Shown here piece by piece: positions 3,670 to 41,109 of a DNA stretch of 64,000 nucleotides. Under the pieces are notes generated by a model. It worked only from the letters and a program-made list of their open reading frames with translations. It made no database searches and was not told where the DNA came from. Each line of letters begins with the position of its first letter. The first letter of the stretch is position 1. Source of the DNA: an uncultured Candidatus Saccharibacteria bacterium (GTDB lineage: Bacteria; Patescibacteriota; Saccharimonadia; Saccharimonadales; UBA10212); the NCBI GenBank assembly GCA_964567555.1, contig CAZMNA010000004.1:6234-70233 (forward strand). Reading direction: 5' to 3'. Both the position numbers and the translations under genes were made by a program.

Positions 3670-4691
3670 GCCAAGCCTTGGCAGATCTATTGGGTAAGCC
3701 TAAGGAAGAAGTTGCCAAGTGGGTTGGGAACATGGAAGCAAGGACTGGCTTTAAGAGCCAGGACATCCGTGTTTTAGCAGATATGAACTTAAACTTGCGC
3801 CAAAAAATTTCCGCTTTGGGATTGGACCCAGACGACACGACTAGCGAGGAGCTCTACCATGCCTTAGTGGCGAAATACGGTAATGATTCGGAACTTATCA
3901 ACAAAGCTTTGGCCGTGGACGAGCGAGCAGACTTTGCGGCCCGCCAAAATCTAGCAATTGGTCTACTGAGTCACCTCGTACCGTCTGCCCACGGCTGGTC
4001 GCTCAAAAATACGGCAGCAAAGGCAATCATAAAGAACCTCCCACCCAAGAAAGTTATGAAGGTCTGGGGCTATCGCTCGGTTGACTCGCTACTCAAGCGT
4101 GAGGATGTTGCAGAGGTTGTGCTGGCCGCCAAGACAAGCGAGCCGACTATGTGGCAAAAAAACTTTGCTGCTGCCTCAAGGAAGGTGGGGCAGGCAGACT
4201 ACCAGCTGGCTCACGTGCGTGTTCTTAGACTCAAGGCCGAGCGCGACTACGGCGACGAATGGTGTGTAGAAAATGGTCAGCTGGCTGTGGTAGCGCTTAA
4301 CCCGGCCAAAACTCAGGATACGCCAGTTTTGTCCATGGCACTGCTGCTTTTAAAAGGAGTAGAGAGAACTAGCCTACGCTACGAGGCTAAGCCGCTAACT
4401 AAAATAAACCCGGCTCTATCTTTTTGGCAAGGCGCAGAACATTTACTGGCACGGGCCGAAGGTCCGCCTGTTTCGCTAAATATTAATGACGTTAGTCGCT
4501 CTCATGATGATGGCAACAAATTTGGAGAGCATTCCTTTGCCCACGCTGCTGACGGCTTGTTTAATGAACTCGCCAATAGCTATGAAGCTCTGGCTGCCCA
4601 AGTTTCTGGCGGAGCAGCTCAGTTGGAAGCTCAAGTTGATAAATCAATTAACCCTGTCCAAGACTTAGCGCTAGAGGCGGTTGAGGCCTAG
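3666..4691 (+). CDS. Hypothetical protein (no family recognised)
   Basis: Long ORF. ATG 3666 overlaps the kinase stop as ATGA, and the ORF ends 3 nt before the next start. No TM segments or known motifs seen. The ORF track lists an earlier start at 3642. Confidence 0.55.
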   Translation: MSQALADLLGKPKEEVAKWVGNMEARTGFKSQDIRVLADMNLNLRQKISALGLDPDDTTSEELYHALVAKYGNDSELINKALAVDERADFAARQNLAIGLLSHLVPSAHGWSLKNTAAKAIIKNLPPKKVMKVWGYRSVDSLLKREDVAEVVLAAKTSEPTMWQKNFAAASRKVGQADYQLAHVRVLRLKAERDYGDEWCVENGQLAVVALNPAKTQDTPVLSMALLLLKGVERTSLRYEAKPLTKINPALSFWQGAEHLLARAEGPPVSLNINDVSRSHDDGNKFGEHSFAHAADGLFNELANSYEALAAQVSGGAAQLEAQVDKSINPVQDLALEAVEA

Positions 4692-22353: not shown

Positions 22354-23562
22354 ATGATTAAGGAATTAGAAAATATGGATATGGATTTTAAACAATTAGC
22401 TCAGGCGATAAAACTAATTGCCGAAGAAAAGAATCTGCCCGAAAATCAAGTGGCTGACATTGTCGAGCAAGCCCTAGCGGCAGCTTGGCGCCGGGACTAC
22501 GGAGAGCGAGACCAGGAAGTCAGGGTGACCATGAATCTCAATACCGGCGAAGTCACAGCGTTTGTTACAAAGGAAGTTGTAGGGCATGTAGAAGACCCGC
22601 ATATGCAAATTAACCTTGCTGAAGCTCAAGCCGTTCGCAAAAACGCAAAGCTTGGCGAGAGCGTGGAATTGATTCAAAAAATTGATGACTTTGGCCGCGT
22701 AGCCGCGCAGACAGCCAAGCAAGTTATAATGCAGCGCTTGCGAGAAGCTGAGCGTGAAATTGTGATGGCGGAATTTGAAGATAAAATCGGCACCCTAGTC
22801 AACGGAATAGTAACGCGTGTAGAGGGCCGGGTTGTTAGGGTTGAACTTGGTAGAGCCCAAGGGCTTTTGCCTGCCAGTGAGCAAATTCAGGGCGAGCGAT
22901 ACTACCCGGGCCAACGACTCAAGCTATTTTTGAAAGATGTTGAAAAAGGTCCACGCGGCCCGCAACTAATTGTTAGCCGTGGCGCCAAGGAATTTATTGA
23001 GCAGCTTTTCAGGGCTGAAGTACCCGAGATGGAATCGGGTGCAGTAGAAATTAAGGCTATTTCACGGGAAGCCGGCGTTCGCTCCAAGATTGCCGTTGCC
23101 AGTACTGTTCCGGGCGTAGACCCGGTCGGCACGTTCGTGGGCGGGCACGGTACGCGTATTAACGCCGTTCGGGACGAAATCGGCAATCAAGAGATGATTG
23201 ACATCATCGTTTGGGATGAAGACCTGGCAGTCTTTATAGCCAACGCGATGAAACCTGCCAATGTCGTGCGGGTTGAAATTGGCAACGACGGCAAAGCCAA
23301 AGTTTTCGTTGAAGATGATCAGCTATCAATAGCTATTGGCAAATCTGGACAAAATGTTCGGTTGGCTGGAAAGCTTACAGATCACGAGTTAGATGTAGAG
23401 GGCAAAGACGGTGGGCAAGCAAGCGCGAAGCCAGAGATCCAGAAGACTGAATCAAAGCCAGTAGTCCAAAAACTAAAGAAGAAATCAGACCTAGAAGATT
23501 CCCTTCTCAAAGCGATTGAGCAGCACGGGACTGAAGCCGAAGACAAAAAGGACTTATCGTAA
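22354..23562 (+). CDS. nusA: Transcription termination/antitermination factor NusA
   Basis: N-terminal domain, S1 (..GTLVNGIVTRVEGRVVRVELG..) and two KH domains (..PGVDPVGTFVGGHGTRINAV.., ..AIGKSGQNVRLAGKLT..). An in-frame ATG at 22375 with AGGA 10 nt upstream is an alternative start. Confidence 0.9.
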   Translation: MIKELENMDMDFKQLAQAIKLIAEEKNLPENQVADIVEQALAAAWRRDYGERDQEVRVTMNLNTGEVTAFVTKEVVGHVEDPHMQINLAEAQAVRKNAKLGESVELIQKIDDFGRVAAQTAKQVIMQRLREAEREIVMAEFEDKIGTLVNGIVTRVEGRVVRVELGRAQGLLPASEQIQGERYYPGQRLKLFLKDVEKGPRGPQLIVSRGAKEFIEQLFRAEVPEMESGAVEIKAISREAGVRSKIAVASTVPGVDPVGTFVGGHGTRINAVRDEIGNQEMIDIIVWDEDLAVFIANAMKPANVVRVEIGNDGKAKVFVEDDQLSIAIGKSGQNVRLAGKLTDHELDVEGKDGGQASAKPEIQKTESKPVVQKLKKKSDLEDSLLKAIEQHGTEAEDKKDLS

Positions 23563-23563
23563 A

Positions 23564-23590
23564 TTAGCACTCTTGACTTGAGAGTGCTAA
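23564..23590. promoter_or_regulatory. CIRCE (HrcA operator) inverted repeat upstream of clpC
   Basis: TTAGCACTC-ttgacttga-GAGTGCTAA matches the consensus TTAGCACTC-N9-GAGTGCTAA at 18 of 18 positions. Confidence 0.8.
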
Positions 23591-23603
23591 TTTGTGGTAT
23601 CAT
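23574..23603 (+). promoter_or_regulatory. Candidate sigma70-type promoter overlapping CIRCE
   Basis: TTGACT (23574-23579, inside the CIRCE spacer), an 18-nt spacer, then TGgTATCAT (23595-23603). A second, leaderless-type TATAAT lies at 23661-23666, 9 nt before ATG 23676. Confidence 0.5.
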
Positions 23604-23675: not shown

Positions 23676-26171
23676 ATGATTCCAAATTCACCAGATTTTC
23701 AAGAATTTTTGTCGCACCTAACCAATAACGCGCTGCATAGCCTAAAGCACGCTGACGCTATAGCCCGCGCTAGTGGCAGTGCCTATATTGGTACAGAGCA
23801 CCTACTGCTTGGAGTACTGGCTCAAGAAGGATCCATTGCTTCTAAAATATTAGAAAATTCCGGCATTACTCTTGATCGTGCCCGGCTAGCCTTAAACCTT
23901 ACTCCAAAAACTTTAGTCATAAATATGGGCGGCAAAGGCTTATCTGAGACTGCAAAGCTCACCCTAAAGATGGCCTGGGAGATTGCCCAGGAATTCGGCC
24001 AAGATTACTGCGGCACAGAGCACGTCTTATATAGCATCTTGAGTCAAAAAAATGCCCGGGCTACCACATTACTCAAGGACATGAACGTGGACGTTGATAA
24101 CTTATCGGGCGAGGTAGAGCAGTTTCTTAATCGGCAACAGTTTGAAGCCGACGGTGCAGCGAGCAACAATCGGCGGCGCGGCAAAGCTGGCAAACAATCC
24201 GCCCTAGAACTCTTTGGTTCGGATCTGACTAAGTTAGCGCGCGACGGCAAACTGGACCCGGTAGTTGGTCGTGAACCCCAGATTAAACGGGTAATTACAA
24301 TTTTAAACCGCCGGACGAAGAACAATCCGGTATTAATCGGGGAACCAGGCGTCGGCAAGACGGCTATCGTTGAGGGCATCGCTCAGAGGATCGTAAATGA
24401 AGAAGTCCCCGACTCGCTTTTAGATAAACGAATTATTACGCTAGACCTGGCCGGCATGATTGCAGGCACTAAGTACCGCGGCGAATTTGAAGATCGTCTT
24501 AAAAAAGTCCTGGCAGAACTTGAGCAGGATAAAAATACGATAGTCTTTATTGACGAGTTGCACTTGATTGTTGGTGCTGGCGCTGCTGAAGGCTCAATGG
24601 ATGCAGGTAATATATTAAAACCCAGCCTCGCTCGCGGCAAAATCCAGCTGGTTGGTGCAACTACAACAGATGAATACTCAAAGCATGTCGAAAAGGACGC
24701 GGCCTTAGAGCGCCGATTCCAGCCTGTCCAGGTGCCCGAGGCTACACCCGCGGAGACACTCGCTATCCTAAAAGGCCTCAGAAGTCATTATGAAGAGTTC
24801 CATAATGTCAAAGCATCTGACGAAGTCTTGGAAGATACAGTCAATTTTGCTCGCCGTTACATCAATGACCGCTATATGCCCGATAAGGCAATTGACCTGC
24901 TCGATGAGACGGCAGCCTACTTGCGGGTTAACCTTGGCAAAACCCCGCCTCAACTTCGAGGGCTACAAAAAGAACTAAAGCTAATCAACAGTCGGATTGA
25001 TGACGCAGTGGATAATGAGGATTACGAGAAAGCGGCCGTAGAAAAGCAAAAGGCCAGTGTATTAAATGAAAAGATTACCAAGCTGGAAGAAACGCACAAG
25101 ACGGGCAAGGCCATTATTATGAGAAGCGATGACGTGGCAGAAACGGTTGCTCGTATGACAGGAGTCCCGGTAACCAAAGTTATTCGCTCAGAAGCAAAAT
25201 ATCTGATTAACCTTGAAAAGAATTTGGCTAAATATGTCATCGGACAAGAAGAGGCCGTGTCAATGGTTGCCAAGGCCGTTCGCCGCTCTCGTTCAGGCAT
25301 ATCCAGCGAAAAGCGTCCGATTGGTTCATTCATTTTTCTTGGACCAACCGGAGTGGGTAAGACCGAATTAGCTCGGGTACTGGCGAGGGAATTTTTCGGC
25401 TCTGAGGATGCTCTTATTAAAATTGATATGAGCGAATTCGGTGAACACCACACTGTCGCCCGTTTGGTGGGGGCACCAGCCGGCTATGTTGGCTACGATG
25501 ACGGCGGTCAGCTAACCGATAAGGTTCGCCGCCAGCCCTACTCCGTAGTGTTGTTTGATGAAATCGAAAAGGCCCATCCGGACATATTCAACATTCTTTT
25601 ACAGATTCTTGAGGACGGTCATCTTGCCGATGCCAAAGGTCGTAGGATTGATTTTTCAAATACCATAGTCATTATGACCTCTAACATTGGTGCCGATAAG
25701 CTCCAGAAGGAAGCTAGCTTTGGCTTTAGCGCCATTAATCCGGGTGCCCTGGGTAACCTAGATGAGTTGCATGAATCTAACAAGGCTAAAGTCACTGACG
25801 ATTTAAAGAAGATAATGCGCCCTGAACTTTTAAACCGGATTGATAAGGTTGTCGTCTTCCGGGCACTGTCCAAAAAAGACGTCATGAGTATACTTGATCT
25901 TCAACTGGACGAGTTGCGTTCGCGGTTAATCAAAAAAGGTATCGGTCTTGATGTTAACGAACAAGCCAAGCAATACCTACTAGAGAACGGCTACGACGCC
26001 CACAATGGTGCTAGGCCAATGCGGCGCCTTCTGCAAGAGACCGTTGAGGATGCTATTGCCGCCGGCCTTCTGGATGAGAGCTACCATAAAGGTGATGTGG
26101 TGACTGTGGCGATTAAACAGAGTCCGCGCTCAGAAAAGACAGAATTAGTTTACGCAGCGTCACCAGAATAG
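23676..26171 (+). CDS. clpC: ATP-dependent Clp protease ATP-binding subunit ClpC
   Basis: Two Clp_N repeats, two AAA+ modules ([13 protein letters not shown]; [12 protein letters not shown]) and a UVR-like linker (..[14 protein letters not shown]..). Confidence 0.9.
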
Positions 26172-38325: not shown

Positions 38326-39609
38326 ATGATCATTACTCGCACCGATGAGCCTAATAATAAAATAAAGCTTCTAATAAGTTTGGATTCAAGTGAGCTTGGG
38401 CCCGTCAAGGATCACGTCATAGCCAAACACTTTGGCGACGTAAAAGTTCCTGGCTTTAGGGTTGGGCGTGCACCAGCGCAAGTTATTGAACAAAATCTTG
38501 ATCAAAAATTGGTGGTTAACGATTTTTTGGAGCACGCCATTAATGAATACTTTCCACGGGCTCTTCAACAGGAAAATGTGCGAGGTGTTGGTCAGCCCGA
38601 CATTCAAGTAAAAAAGTTTGTACCTTACGACCAGCTAGAGTTCGAGGCGTCTTTGGCCGTCGTCGGTCCGGTTAAACTGCCCGACTATAAGAAAATTAAG
38701 CTGACTAGGCCAAAGGTCGAAATTTCTACAACCGAAGTAAATGAAGTTCTGAGGTCACTACAGCAGCGAACGGCCAATCGCAAAGAATCAAGTGCCGCAA
38801 TCAAGACAGGCGATGAGGCAATCATTGACTTTGTCGGCAAAGATGACAAATCAAAACCGGTGCCGGGTGCTGAAGGCAAAGATTTTTCGGTTGTAATTGG
38901 TGCTCAAGCTTTAATCCCTGGCTTCGAGGATAATCTAATTGGACTAAAGGCAGGTGATACTAAGAAATTTGCGCTTGCCTTTCCTAGTAACTATGGACTG
39001 CCAGAATTGCGCTCAAAGAAAGTTAGTTTTAGCGCAGAGGTCAAACAGGTCAATGAACTAACTGAGCCTAAACTGGATGATGCATTTGCTGGCAAAATCG
39101 GGCCTTTTAAAAACCTCGCCGACCTCAAAGCCGATATTAAAAAACAGCTGATGGCCGAGCGAGAGATGCAGGCGCAGCGTGATGTTGAGAGCCGCTTAGT
39201 TAAACAAATCGTTGATAAATCTACGGTTGATATACCACAGAGTTTGGTTGAAGAGCAACTGCAGCTCATGGAAGACGAAGAAAAGCGTAATTTAGCCCAC
39301 CGCGGGCAAACCTGGCAGGAACATCTCAGGGCTGAGGCGGTCTCTGCCGAACAACACCGTGAACGCTACCGCTCTGAGGCTGCCGAGCGTGTCAAGGCTG
39401 GTCTAGCCCTGAGTGAGATTTCTATACGCGAAAAGATCCAAGTCACGCCCGAAGAAATAAATAGCCGCATTGCCGAGCTCAAAGGTCAATATGCCGACGA
39501 AGCAATGCGAGCCGAACTTGATAACCCGGCTAATAGACAGGACGTCGCAGCACGCCTGCTAACCGACAAGACGCTTCAAAAACTACTTGAATACTCAACC
39601 ACGAATTAG
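38326..39609 (+). CDS. tig: Trigger factor
   Basis: N-terminal ribosome-binding domain (..GFRVGRAP..), FKBP-type middle domain (..IDFVGKDD..GFEDNLIGLKAGD..) and a helical C-domain. Confidence 0.9.
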   Translation: MIITRTDEPNNKIKLLISLDSSELGPVKDHVIAKHFGDVKVPGFRVGRAPAQVIEQNLDQKLVVNDFLEHAINEYFPRALQQENVRGVGQPDIQVKKFVPYDQLEFEASLAVVGPVKLPDYKKIKLTRPKVEISTTEVNEVLRSLQQRTANRKESSAAIKTGDEAIIDFVGKDDKSKPVPGAEGKDFSVVIGAQALIPGFEDNLIGLKAGDTKKFALAFPSNYGLPELRSKKVSFSAEVKQVNELTEPKLDDAFAGKIGPFKNLADLKADIKKQLMAEREMQAQRDVESRLVKQIVDKSTVDIPQSLVEEQLQLMEDEEKRNLAHRGQTWQEHLRAEAVSAEQHRERYRSEAAERVKAGLALSEISIREKIQVTPEEINSRIAELKGQYADEAMRAELDNPANRQDVAARLLTDKTLQKLLEYSTTN

Positions 39610-39632
39610 CACTCTTGACTTGCGAGTGCCAA
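39606..39632. promoter_or_regulatory. CIRCE-like (HrcA operator) inverted repeat upstream of clpP
   Basis: TTAGCACTC-ttgacttgc-GAGTGCCAA matches the consensus at 17 of 18 positions. The first 19 nt (AATTAGCACTCTTGACTTG) are identical to the clpC copy. TTGACT in the spacer lies 16 nt upstream of TAAGCT (39638-39643), which is 9 nt before ATG 39653. Confidence 0.7.
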
Positions 39633-39652
39633 CCGGCTAAGCTGGTTTTATT

Positions 39653-40252
39653 ATGAATAATACTTCTCAGGTCCTGGTGCCAACTGTTATAGAACAAGAA
39701 GGCCGTATGGAGCGGGCATATGACATCTACAGTCGTCTTTTGAAGGACCGCATTATTTTCCTTGGCGATGAAATCAATCAGCACACTGCCAATCTAGTAG
39801 TTGCCCAGATTCTTTTTTTAGAAAACGAGGAGCCAAACCGCGACATTATTCTTTACCTTAATAGTCCAGGTGGAAGTGTCTACGACGCCCTTGCGATTTA
39901 TGACACCATGAAATTTGTTAAAAGCGATATCCAGACCGTTGGGATTGGCGTCCAAGCGTCTGCTGCTGCCTTTATTTTAAGTTCCGGCACCAAAGGCAAG
40001 CGCTTGCTGCTACCTAACACCACGGTAATGATTCACCAGCCATCAAGTGCTAGTCAGCGCGCTAAGATCTCTGACCTAGAAATTGATCTTCGTGAGGGCA
40101 TCCGATTAAAGAAGCTGCTAAACGAAATCATGGCTAAAAACACCGGTCAGCCAATTAGCAAGGTTGAAAAAGATGTAGACCGCGACTATTGGATGACGGC
40201 CGATGAGGCCAAAAAATACGGATTAGTCGACAAGGTTATTACGAACCGGTAG
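39653..40252 (+). CDS. clpP: ATP-dependent Clp protease proteolytic subunit
   Basis: ..[13 protein letters not shown].., catalytic Ser context [11 protein letters not shown], His in VMIHQP and Asp in DRDYWM. Confidence 0.95.
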
Positions 40253-40302: not shown

Positions 40303-41109
40303 ATGACTGAACTAGCAGCTGAACCACTAGAACGCGAAGACCGTGACGATTTTTTCTACGTAAAGTATGGGGGTTATAACTTTCCGATAGCTGAAGACGG
40401 CGGCCTCCGCATCAGTAGGGTCAATAGTTCAAGCCCCGAGAGATACCACCAAGCTGCGACAAGAGAAATGATTGAGCGGTGGAGACGCTGGAGACCTGTG
40501 AGTGGCGAGAGCTCGGTAGCATTTTCTGGACCTAGCAATGCCGACCTTGCTGCAGAAACTCGACGCTACTTAGGGGAATTGCCAACTGAAGGTTTGCATG
40601 TCAATGTTAAGGCATCATTGCCTGTATTGCCGTTTAGTTTTTGGCAGAGAGGCGTAACGCGGCGCGTCGAGGGTCCGGACCGCAATCTCGACCTCCCGGT
40701 AGGATTCGGCTATGCTAAACGGTTGGGCCGTAGACTTGATGGTTTTACTGACGTTGGCAATATCGTTGTTGATCCTGACTACAGGGGTCTGGGCGTCGGG
40801 CGAACTATCTTGCACTCGCTTTTAAGAGAGTCTCCTCAGTATGTGGAGGTCGAAGCGATGATCCGAAGAGATGATGAGAGGATTAAAGAACTTGCCGTAG
40901 CTCTAGGCTTCAGCGCCGTTCCGTTTAGAGAGCACATGATGGACGTGGGCGAGCCCCTAGATTTGTACAGAGCATCTTCCGCAAGAGAGGTGTTGGCCTA
41001 CCTCGAACGAGCCAATCCATGGCTGCAAACAAGGCAACCTGTTCGGCCCATTAGGCCAGCTTCAACAAAAAGCGGCGGAAAAGTGTTGACATCTAGCTCA
41101 GTAACATAG
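40303..41109 (+). CDS. GNAT-like acetyltransferase with unrecognised ~150-aa N-terminal region
   Basis: ..NIVVDPDYRGLGVGRTILHSLL.. is GNAT motif A (R/Q-x-x-G-x-G/A). The protein is Arg-rich and uses many AGR codons, unlike its neighbours. Confidence 0.55.
   Translation: MTELAAEPLEREDRDDFFYVKYGGYNFPIAEDGGLRISRVNSSSPERYHQAATREMIERWRRWRPVSGESSVAFSGPSNADLAAETRRYLGELPTEGLHVNVKASLPVLPFSFWQRGVTRRVEGPDRNLDLPVGFGYAKRLGRRLDGFTDVGNIVVDPDYRGLGVGRTILHSLLRESPQYVEVEAMIRRDDERIKELAVALGFSAVPFREHMMDVGEPLDLYRASSAREVLAYLERANPWLQTRQPVRPIRPASTKSGGKVLTSSSVT

Follow-up and report, generated by a model that had tools for sequence, protein, structure and literature searches.

A CIRCE operator that probably doubles as part of the clpP promoter in a Saccharibacterium

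In Bacillus subtilis and other bacteria, the HrcA repressor acts on class I promoters, such as those of dnaK and groESL, through the controlling inverted repeat of chaperone expression (CIRCE), which in B. subtilis is located between the transcription start site and the ribosome-binding site. In Firmicutes, clpP and clpC are targets of the class III repressor CtsR, whose operator is a heptad direct repeat, with clpP of Streptococcus salivarius reportedly under the dual control of CtsR and HrcA. The CIRCE consensus is TTAGCACTC-N9-GAGTGCTAA (PMC3842655), and in Mycoplasma pneumoniae HrcA regulates proteases as well as chaperones, with the lon gene, which lies downstream of the trigger factor gene tig, driven by the tig promoter and a CIRCE serving as the control element (PMC7737663). 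Here we describe a CIRCE between tig and clpP, at positions 39606-39632 of a 64-kb stretch of DNA (the window, which is the whole of the sequence analysed) from a bacterium assigned below to the Saccharibacteria, and present the evidence that its spacer supplies the -35 hexamer of a clpP promoter (Table 1).

The tig-CIRCE-lon arrangement of M. pneumoniae is the closest precedent for this locus, with a CIRCE placed in both cases between the genes of trigger factor and of a main ATP-dependent protease in a genome-reduced organism; however, the protease is Lon there and ClpP here, the phylum is a different one, and the operator here seems to carry a -35 and a -10 of its own. As in the class I systems, the inverted repeat occupies a protein-quality-control promoter, and the motif of this lineage likewise precedes hrcA, dnaK, and groESL. 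In contrast to those systems, the operator here serves clpP (and its sister copy clpC) in place of a chaperone operon, the transcript is probably leaderless, the HrcA proteins of the lineage are ~234 residues long compared with ~340 in other bacteria, and the -35 lies inside the operator spacer, unlike the B. subtilis placement. The CtsR operator of Firmicutes has the same clpP and clpC targets and the same logic of a repressor site overlapping the promoter, but differs from the CIRCE of the window in DNA motif and repressor. Streptococcus salivarius clpP is reportedly likewise a member of an HrcA/CIRCE regulon, but with an added CtsR operator. A motif search for CtsR-type operators (RGTCAAA-NAN-RGTCAAA, 3 mismatches) returned 5 matches in the window, compared with 6.2 expected, none of them near clpC or clpP; a CtsR box was therefore rejected as an alternative operator at these genes, and HrcA appears to be their sole stress repressor, in the role of CtsR. 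Within the library searched, no paper was found linking CIRCE or HrcA with Saccharibacteria, TM7, or Patescibacteria, and a transcriptome study of TM7x reports the clp genes as differentially expressed and names no regulator.

The element is a 9-9-9 inverted repeat matching the CIRCE consensus at 17 of 18 arm positions, and re-reading of the letters bears out the original prediction on this count, as it does for the overlap with tig, whose TAG stop codon (39607-39609) lies inside the left arm. Allowing up to 3 mismatches, the consensus occurs just twice in the window, here and as a perfect copy at 23564-23590, with the 19-mer AATTAGCACTCTTGACTTG, earlier described as common to the clpP and clpC copies, occurring only at these two places (23562-23580 and 39604-39622) even allowing 3 mismatches, compared with 0.01 occurrences expected by chance. 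Each of the two stands immediately ahead of a clp gene, and its TTGAC is oriented in the direction of that gene. To place the window copy among others, the pattern TTAGCACTCTTGACNNNNGAGTGC was scanned over one genome per species, yielding at least 120 loci, mostly from metagenome-assembled genomes (MAGs) of Saccharibacteria or other Patescibacteria; the 124 sites listed (L011-L130) were oriented by TTGAC and grouped by their first downstream gene. The single deviation of the window copy, a T-to-C change that makes the right arm end in CAA, is the second commonest ending in this set (14 of 124). The clpP site is far from a chance match, and by its sequence, position, and phylogenetic behaviour we regard it as a genuine CIRCE.

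The first six bases of the spacer, TTGACT, were proposed in the original prediction to be a -35 inside the operator, with TAAGCT as the -10. The gap between the two (39621-39637) is 17 nt, which is the optimal sigma-70 spacing, rather than the 16 nt first counted, whilst the distance of 9 nt from TAAGCT to the clpP ATG agrees with the coordinates. TAAGCT matches TATAAT at three of six positions, these being T1, A2, and T6, the positions that define TAnnnT. The placement of the -35 finds its support in the wider lineage, where a TAnnnT hexamer follows TTGACN at 16-19 nt in 102 of the 124 listed cassettes, so that the TTGAC of the spacer is taken to be a real -35. In an alignment of 21 clpP cassettes the arms are almost invariant, with the spacer variable save for a TTG-type -35 at its start or end, and in those clpP orthologues with the -35 at the spacer start, a -10 (for example TATCAT, TATACT, TAATAT, or TACAAT) stands 5-6 nt past the right arm, the very place of TAAGCT in the window. 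The cassettes of dnaK (25/27), hrcA (20/27), and hsp20 (6/7) among those listed mostly carry the consensus TTGACA as their spacer -35, with a last base other than A seen at clpC (22/31) and clpP (8/11), and both window copies reading TTGACT; the tuning of the clp promoters may differ from that of the chaperone promoters.

The right arm of the window operator ends 20 nt upstream of the clpP ATG, and no Shine-Dalgarno sequence is present in 39633-39652. This ATG (39653) is the first possible clpP start, since an in-frame TAA (39638-39640) precedes it with no start codon in between, and the N-terminus it gives, M-x4-Q-[VI]-L-V-P-T-V-I-E, aligns with those of relatives. Among the 21 aligned cassettes, 12 have their ATG 18-25 nt past the right arm without a Shine-Dalgarno sequence, the rest having a short leader with GGAG, and in many relatives the clpP ATG lies 6-10 nt past the -10. 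In the relatives chosen by Tig similarity (see below) this distance is 9 nt in L234, L235, and L238, as in the window, and 10 nt in L233. The short distance from -10 to ATG, together with the lack of a Shine-Dalgarno sequence in many relatives' clpP copies, is consistent with the near-leaderless promoter originally predicted, and comparison with relatives backs a clpP mRNA that is probably leaderless in effect. A generic promoter scan listed GTGCCA-17-TATTAT (39626-39654); this candidate was rejected as the clpP promoter, as a -10 overlapping the ATG could not yield the conserved ClpP N-terminus.

Conservation of the element was followed in two samples chosen without regard to its presence, namely metagenome loci from a ClpP alignment, and the six nearest relatives by Tig similarity. 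A ClpP was counted as Saccharibacteria-type at an identity of at least 60% combined with synteny (a tig match of at least 34%, rpoB downstream, or both), with L138, too short to show its neighbours, counted on identity alone. In the metagenome sample, a CIRCE with no more than 2 mismatches is present at 6 of 8 Saccharibacteria-type clpP loci, 46-66 nt ahead of the start of the ClpP match, whilst none of 70 clpP loci of other lineages has one within 350 nt, even at 3 mismatches. All six relatives picked by Tig have a CIRCE with 0-1 mismatch before clpP. Pooling the samples gives 12 of 14 compared with 0 of 70 (Fisher's exact test, p = 8e-13); the absence from relatives that had been named as a test of the prediction was therefore not found, and the element is kept upstream of clpP. 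In L233, L235, L237, and L238, another open reading frame (ORF) separates tig from clpP, yet the CIRCE still adjoins the clpP side, and the element is therefore seen to follow clpP.

These counts bear directly on the possibility that the site is a chance palindrome, or belongs to a regulator unrelated to HrcA. No direct evidence speaks for either, the point in their favour being that HrcA was not found in the window or the 10 kb on either side of it. Shuffled sequence holds a mean of 0.05 CIRCE sites per window compared with the two observed (two sites occurred in 0 of 100 shuffles), and the probability of a CIRCE with at most 2 mismatches in one 380-nt upstream region is ~8e-6, yet most relatives have one at clpP. 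Furthermore, the identical motif precedes the hrcA of the lineage itself, which is the usual autoregulated arrangement. We consider this explanation close to refuted, in agreement with the earlier argument against a chance palindrome.

Some relatives carry traces of further copies. In L234 the tig stop codon TAG lies inside TTAGCACTC, as it does in the window, in a copy (~3777-3803) that has lost its right arm (TTAGCACTCTTGACCCCAGCACTAA), with an intact CIRCE (3887-3913) ~100 nt further on, adjoining clpP. Similarly, in L238 a degraded copy, TTAGCACTCTGGGTTGACCCCAGCACCAA (~4160-4195), lies upstream of an intact CIRCE (4260-4286). These degraded copies upstream of intact ones suggest that a tig stop codon within the left arm is an old arrangement, and that operators at this place are duplicated and then decay. 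In L237 (~4300-4435) and L236 (3830-4005), the CIRCE promoter lies 133-175 nt from clpP, and the intervening stretch of L237 opens with ATGAATCC, as does clpP; the start of clpP may have been partly duplicated there, or the stretch may be a short upstream ORF that is read without a leader.

That decay of this kind is possible lends some weight to the view that the window site is itself a decaying or weak relic, with clpP relying mostly on transcripts that read through from the tig promoter, and no promoter of its own driven or controlled by the element. The -10 has only three matches, the right arm has a mismatch, and tig ends inside the element, so that tig transcripts must enter it. However, the three bases kept in TAAGCT are T1, A2, and T6 at the ideal spacing, the C variant is seen often in the right arms of cassettes that are otherwise intact, and the arms as a whole are preserved, whereas the relics of L234 and L238 have each lost a whole arm. 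A read-through transcript would also offer no Shine-Dalgarno sequence for internal initiation, and would be curbed by the hairpin and U-tract that stand between the operator and the ATG. We judge a relic to be unlikely.

The hairpin in question, listed as terminator-like by a scan, has a 7-bp stem that includes one G-U pair, and is weak at -8.0 kcal/mol; it overlaps the proposed -10, and its U-tract ends at the clpP ATG. It was not seen in the aligned sequences of relatives, being present only in the species of the window, and is therefore treated as a local add-on. Since no space is left for a tig terminator ahead of the operator, it may be a weak one that shares DNA with the -10, and such a secondary role is compatible with a functional operator at clpP. 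A stronger version of this idea holds that the element works mainly as RNA, with the CIRCE stem-loop and the second hairpin closing the tig mRNA at its 3' end, where they would terminate or stabilise it, and no operator in the DNA. In its favour, folding of the adjacent pair of hairpins gives -16.2 kcal/mol (z = -2.25, with 7 of 200 shuffles as stable), and UUUUAUUAU follows the second hairpin in the manner listed as terminator-like. Against this, the arms are conserved in sequence beyond what pairing alone requires, matching a protein-binding consensus, and where a gene intervenes between tig and clpP the CIRCE stays at clpP, away from the tig 3' end. In addition, hrcA, dnaK, clpC, and hsp20 have the motif ahead of them in a wide variety of upstream surroundings, relatives do not share the second hairpin, and an Rfam search over the region (E up to 1) gave no match. 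An RNA role of this kind seems to us very unlikely.

The explanation that we favour, at a probability of roughly 0.8, is that the site is a functional CIRCE operator merged with a housekeeping-sigma promoter of clpP, with HrcA repressing clpP by covering the -35. The -35 would lie within the 9-nt spacer, with the right arm filling most of the gap to the -10, and transcription would start 2-3 nt before the ATG to give an essentially leaderless mRNA. In non-stressed cells, a dimer of HrcA bound to both arms would mask the -35 and the spacer between -35 and -10, excluding RNA polymerase. With the tig stop codon located in the left arm, the same dimer would also be an obstacle to polymerase arriving from tig. 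As unfolded proteins build up, HrcA would be inactivated and its hold on clpP released, at the same time as that on clpC, with its sister cassette, and on hrcA-grpE, dnaK, hsp20, and groESL at other places in the genome. The classical trigger of HrcA inactivation is titration of GroEL/ES (PMC7737663, citing Mogk et al. 1997). On this explanation, an HrcA would be encoded in this genome and would bind the clpP site, and clpP would be induced by heat.

Several points weigh against this explanation. No hrcA homologue is present in the window or in the 10 kb on either side of it (contig k141_1400948). Two of the 14 sampled relatives (L134 and L135, which have the same upstream sequence) lack a CIRCE, clpP there abutting the upstream gene. 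The -10 is weak, and was not called by the generic promoter scan because of its three of six matches to TATAAT; additionally, it sits within the terminator-like hairpin. There are no close relatives, the nearest Tig being 58% identical, which makes fine-scale footprinting of the window copy impossible, and the 10 contigs of the same species are identical over 39560-39680 and hence uninformative.

The genes found downstream of the cassette across the lineage place the clpP site in a broader context. Among the matches listed, the first downstream gene encodes ClpC at 31 sites, HrcA at 27, DnaK at 27, ClpP at 11, and Hsp20 at 7, and in one Saccharibacteria MAG groES-groEL lies behind a CIRCE on the other strand. 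Such a set of genes is characteristic of an HrcA regulon, to which the Clp protease genes have been added here. The coordination of clpP with clpC under HrcA-type control, which the original prediction had drawn from the two copies in the window, gains support from the same comparison, as a cassette with TTGAC in its spacer precedes hrcA, dnaK, clpC, clpP, and hsp20 across the lineage. Of this putative regulon, the window itself shows the clpC and clpP sites only, with no further CIRCE in the 10 kb beyond each window end on the same contig, and no DnaK homologue in the window when searched with a lineage-type query. The lineage has at least 8000 clusters of short HrcA, and hrcA itself is preceded by the same cassette. 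The HrcA proteins P0007 and P0008 were considered as the HrcA of this organism and rejected; they come from different samples, and are therefore those of other species. Their loci have the typical Saccharibacteria arrangement ftsH-murJ-lepA-gmk-hrcA-grpE-dnaK-dnaJ.

The HrcA proteins of Saccharibacteria and Patescibacteria (P0001-P0120, and for example those at L049, L055, L066, L067, and L091) are ~225-250 residues long, compared with 338-360 elsewhere. A profile of the short form aligns only to residues 15-100 and 233-330 of Thermotoga maritima HrcA (PDB 1STZ). In the short proteins, about 45 residues stand in for some 130 of the canonical middle part. We take the missing middle region to include the inserted dimerising domain. 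Within the HrcA group of downstream genes, three short proteins (225-234 residues) were scanned, with Pfam PF01628 found in all three and PF03444 in two; the group also holds five Streptococcus proteins of normal length (344-360 residues).

The number of operators also differs between genes. In 21 of the 27 listed dnaK promoters (for example L013, L021, L024, L039, and L130) there are two CIRCEs 45-49 nt apart, one over the -35 and the other past the -10, an arrangement found at none of the 31 clpC sites, none of the 11 clpP sites, and 2 of 22 hrcA sites among the listed loci; the double CIRCE implies that dnaK is repressed more tightly than the clp genes are. Taking these observations as a whole, we lean moderately towards a joint reading in which Saccharibacteria, and probably the wider Patescibacteria, have merged the classical heat-shock regulons of Gram-positive bacteria, class I (chaperones, HrcA) and class III (Clp protease, CtsR), into a single CIRCE regulon, with a truncated HrcA of ~234 residues in which roughly 100 residues of the canonical middle region are missing, the -35 in the operator spacer, and often leaderless transcripts. 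As parts of that same reading, the regulon would have two tiers, dnaK with two operators and TTGACA, and clpC and clpP with one operator, a non-consensus -35, and a leakier basal level, and the clpP site of the window would be one instance of this undescribed design.

The sister site lies ahead of clpC (23676-26171), which starts 85 nt downstream of it. Its palindrome (23562-23592) extends to 11 bp per arm (AATTAGCACTC / GAGTGCTAATT), overlapping the nusA stop codon by one base, and folds as RNA to -19.8 kcal/mol. The best -10 at this copy is TATCAT, preceded by TGG and 19 nt from TTGACT, and looks like that of an extended -10 promoter.

Table 1. Features of the tig-clpP region and the sister operator, in window coordinates.
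Feature	Position	Strand	Remarks
tig (trigger factor)	38326-39609	+	ORF; Pfam Trigger_N, FKBP_C, Trigger_C
CIRCE left arm, TTAGCACTC	39606-39614	.	9/9 to consensus
9-nt spacer, ttgacttgc	39615-39623	+	bases 1-6, TTGACT (39615-39620), proposed clpP -35
CIRCE right arm, GAGTGCCAA	39624-39632	.	8/9, one mismatch to GAGTGCTAA
Terminator-like hairpin, AACCGGC-TAA-GCTGGTT, then TTTTATTAT	39631-39652	+	stem-loop 39631-39647
Proposed -10, TAAGCT	39638-39643	+	inferred; 5 nt past right arm, 17 nt past TTGACT
Predicted transcription start	A39650	+	inferred; ~7 nt past -10; 3-nt 5' untranslated region (AUU)
clpP	39653-40252	+	Pfam CLP_protease, E = 1.9e-75
Perfect CIRCE at clpC, TTAGCACTC-ttgacttga-GAGTGCTAA	23564-23590	+	directly past nusA stop (23560-23562)

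The ClpP of the window is 60-76% identical to Saccharibacteria ClpP, and the gene order hisS-tig-clpP-(x)-rpoB is common to the window and to Saccharibacteria MAGs. The best Tig homologues, at most 58% identical, are named Candidatus Saccharimonadales or Saccharibacteria; from these names and the common gene order, the organism is assigned to the Saccharibacteria (TM7, Patescibacteria), as a member without a close sequenced relative. Proteins identical to its ClpP, Tig, and ClpC are present on metagenome contigs, whilst a metagenome scan with the window's Tig protein returned 102 pattern matches, none of which encodes a relative. The trigger factor P0125, 58% identical to that of the window, is labelled at NCBI as 'Candidatus Nitrosopolaris sp.', an archaeon; the protein is of the Saccharibacteria type and its locus, L233, shows tig-clpP-rpoB synteny, and the label probably reflects a contaminating contig in that MAG. 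Between clpP and rpoB, the ORF at 40303-41109 (268 residues, with a weak match to GNAT acetyltransferases) occupies a variable slot, the clpP-rpoB gap in relatives ranging from less than 300 nt to more than 1 kb, with L234, at least, having a different ORF there.

The motif, the repressor family, and the control of proteases by HrcA are already known, and the clpP CIRCE is a new example of a known switch in an under-studied phylum rather than a new kind of element or mechanism. The pattern across the lineage, in which the HrcA regulon takes in clpC and clpP, the spacer holds the -35, transcripts are probably often leaderless, and HrcA is truncated, is a tidy and unsurprising rewiring of a regulon. 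If the reading given here is true, one small repressor and one motif would govern both refolding (DnaK, GroESL, Hsp20) and degradation (ClpCP), with such dual control occurring in ultrasmall episymbiotic bacteria that have few regulators. The proteostasis regulon of Saccharibacteria would then be predictable from sequence, and the cassette would provide a defined operator-promoter unit for the genetic tools being built in cultivated TM7 strains. Furthermore, the lineage would offer a clean case of regulon rewiring, in which HrcA has assumed the role that CtsR has in Firmicutes.

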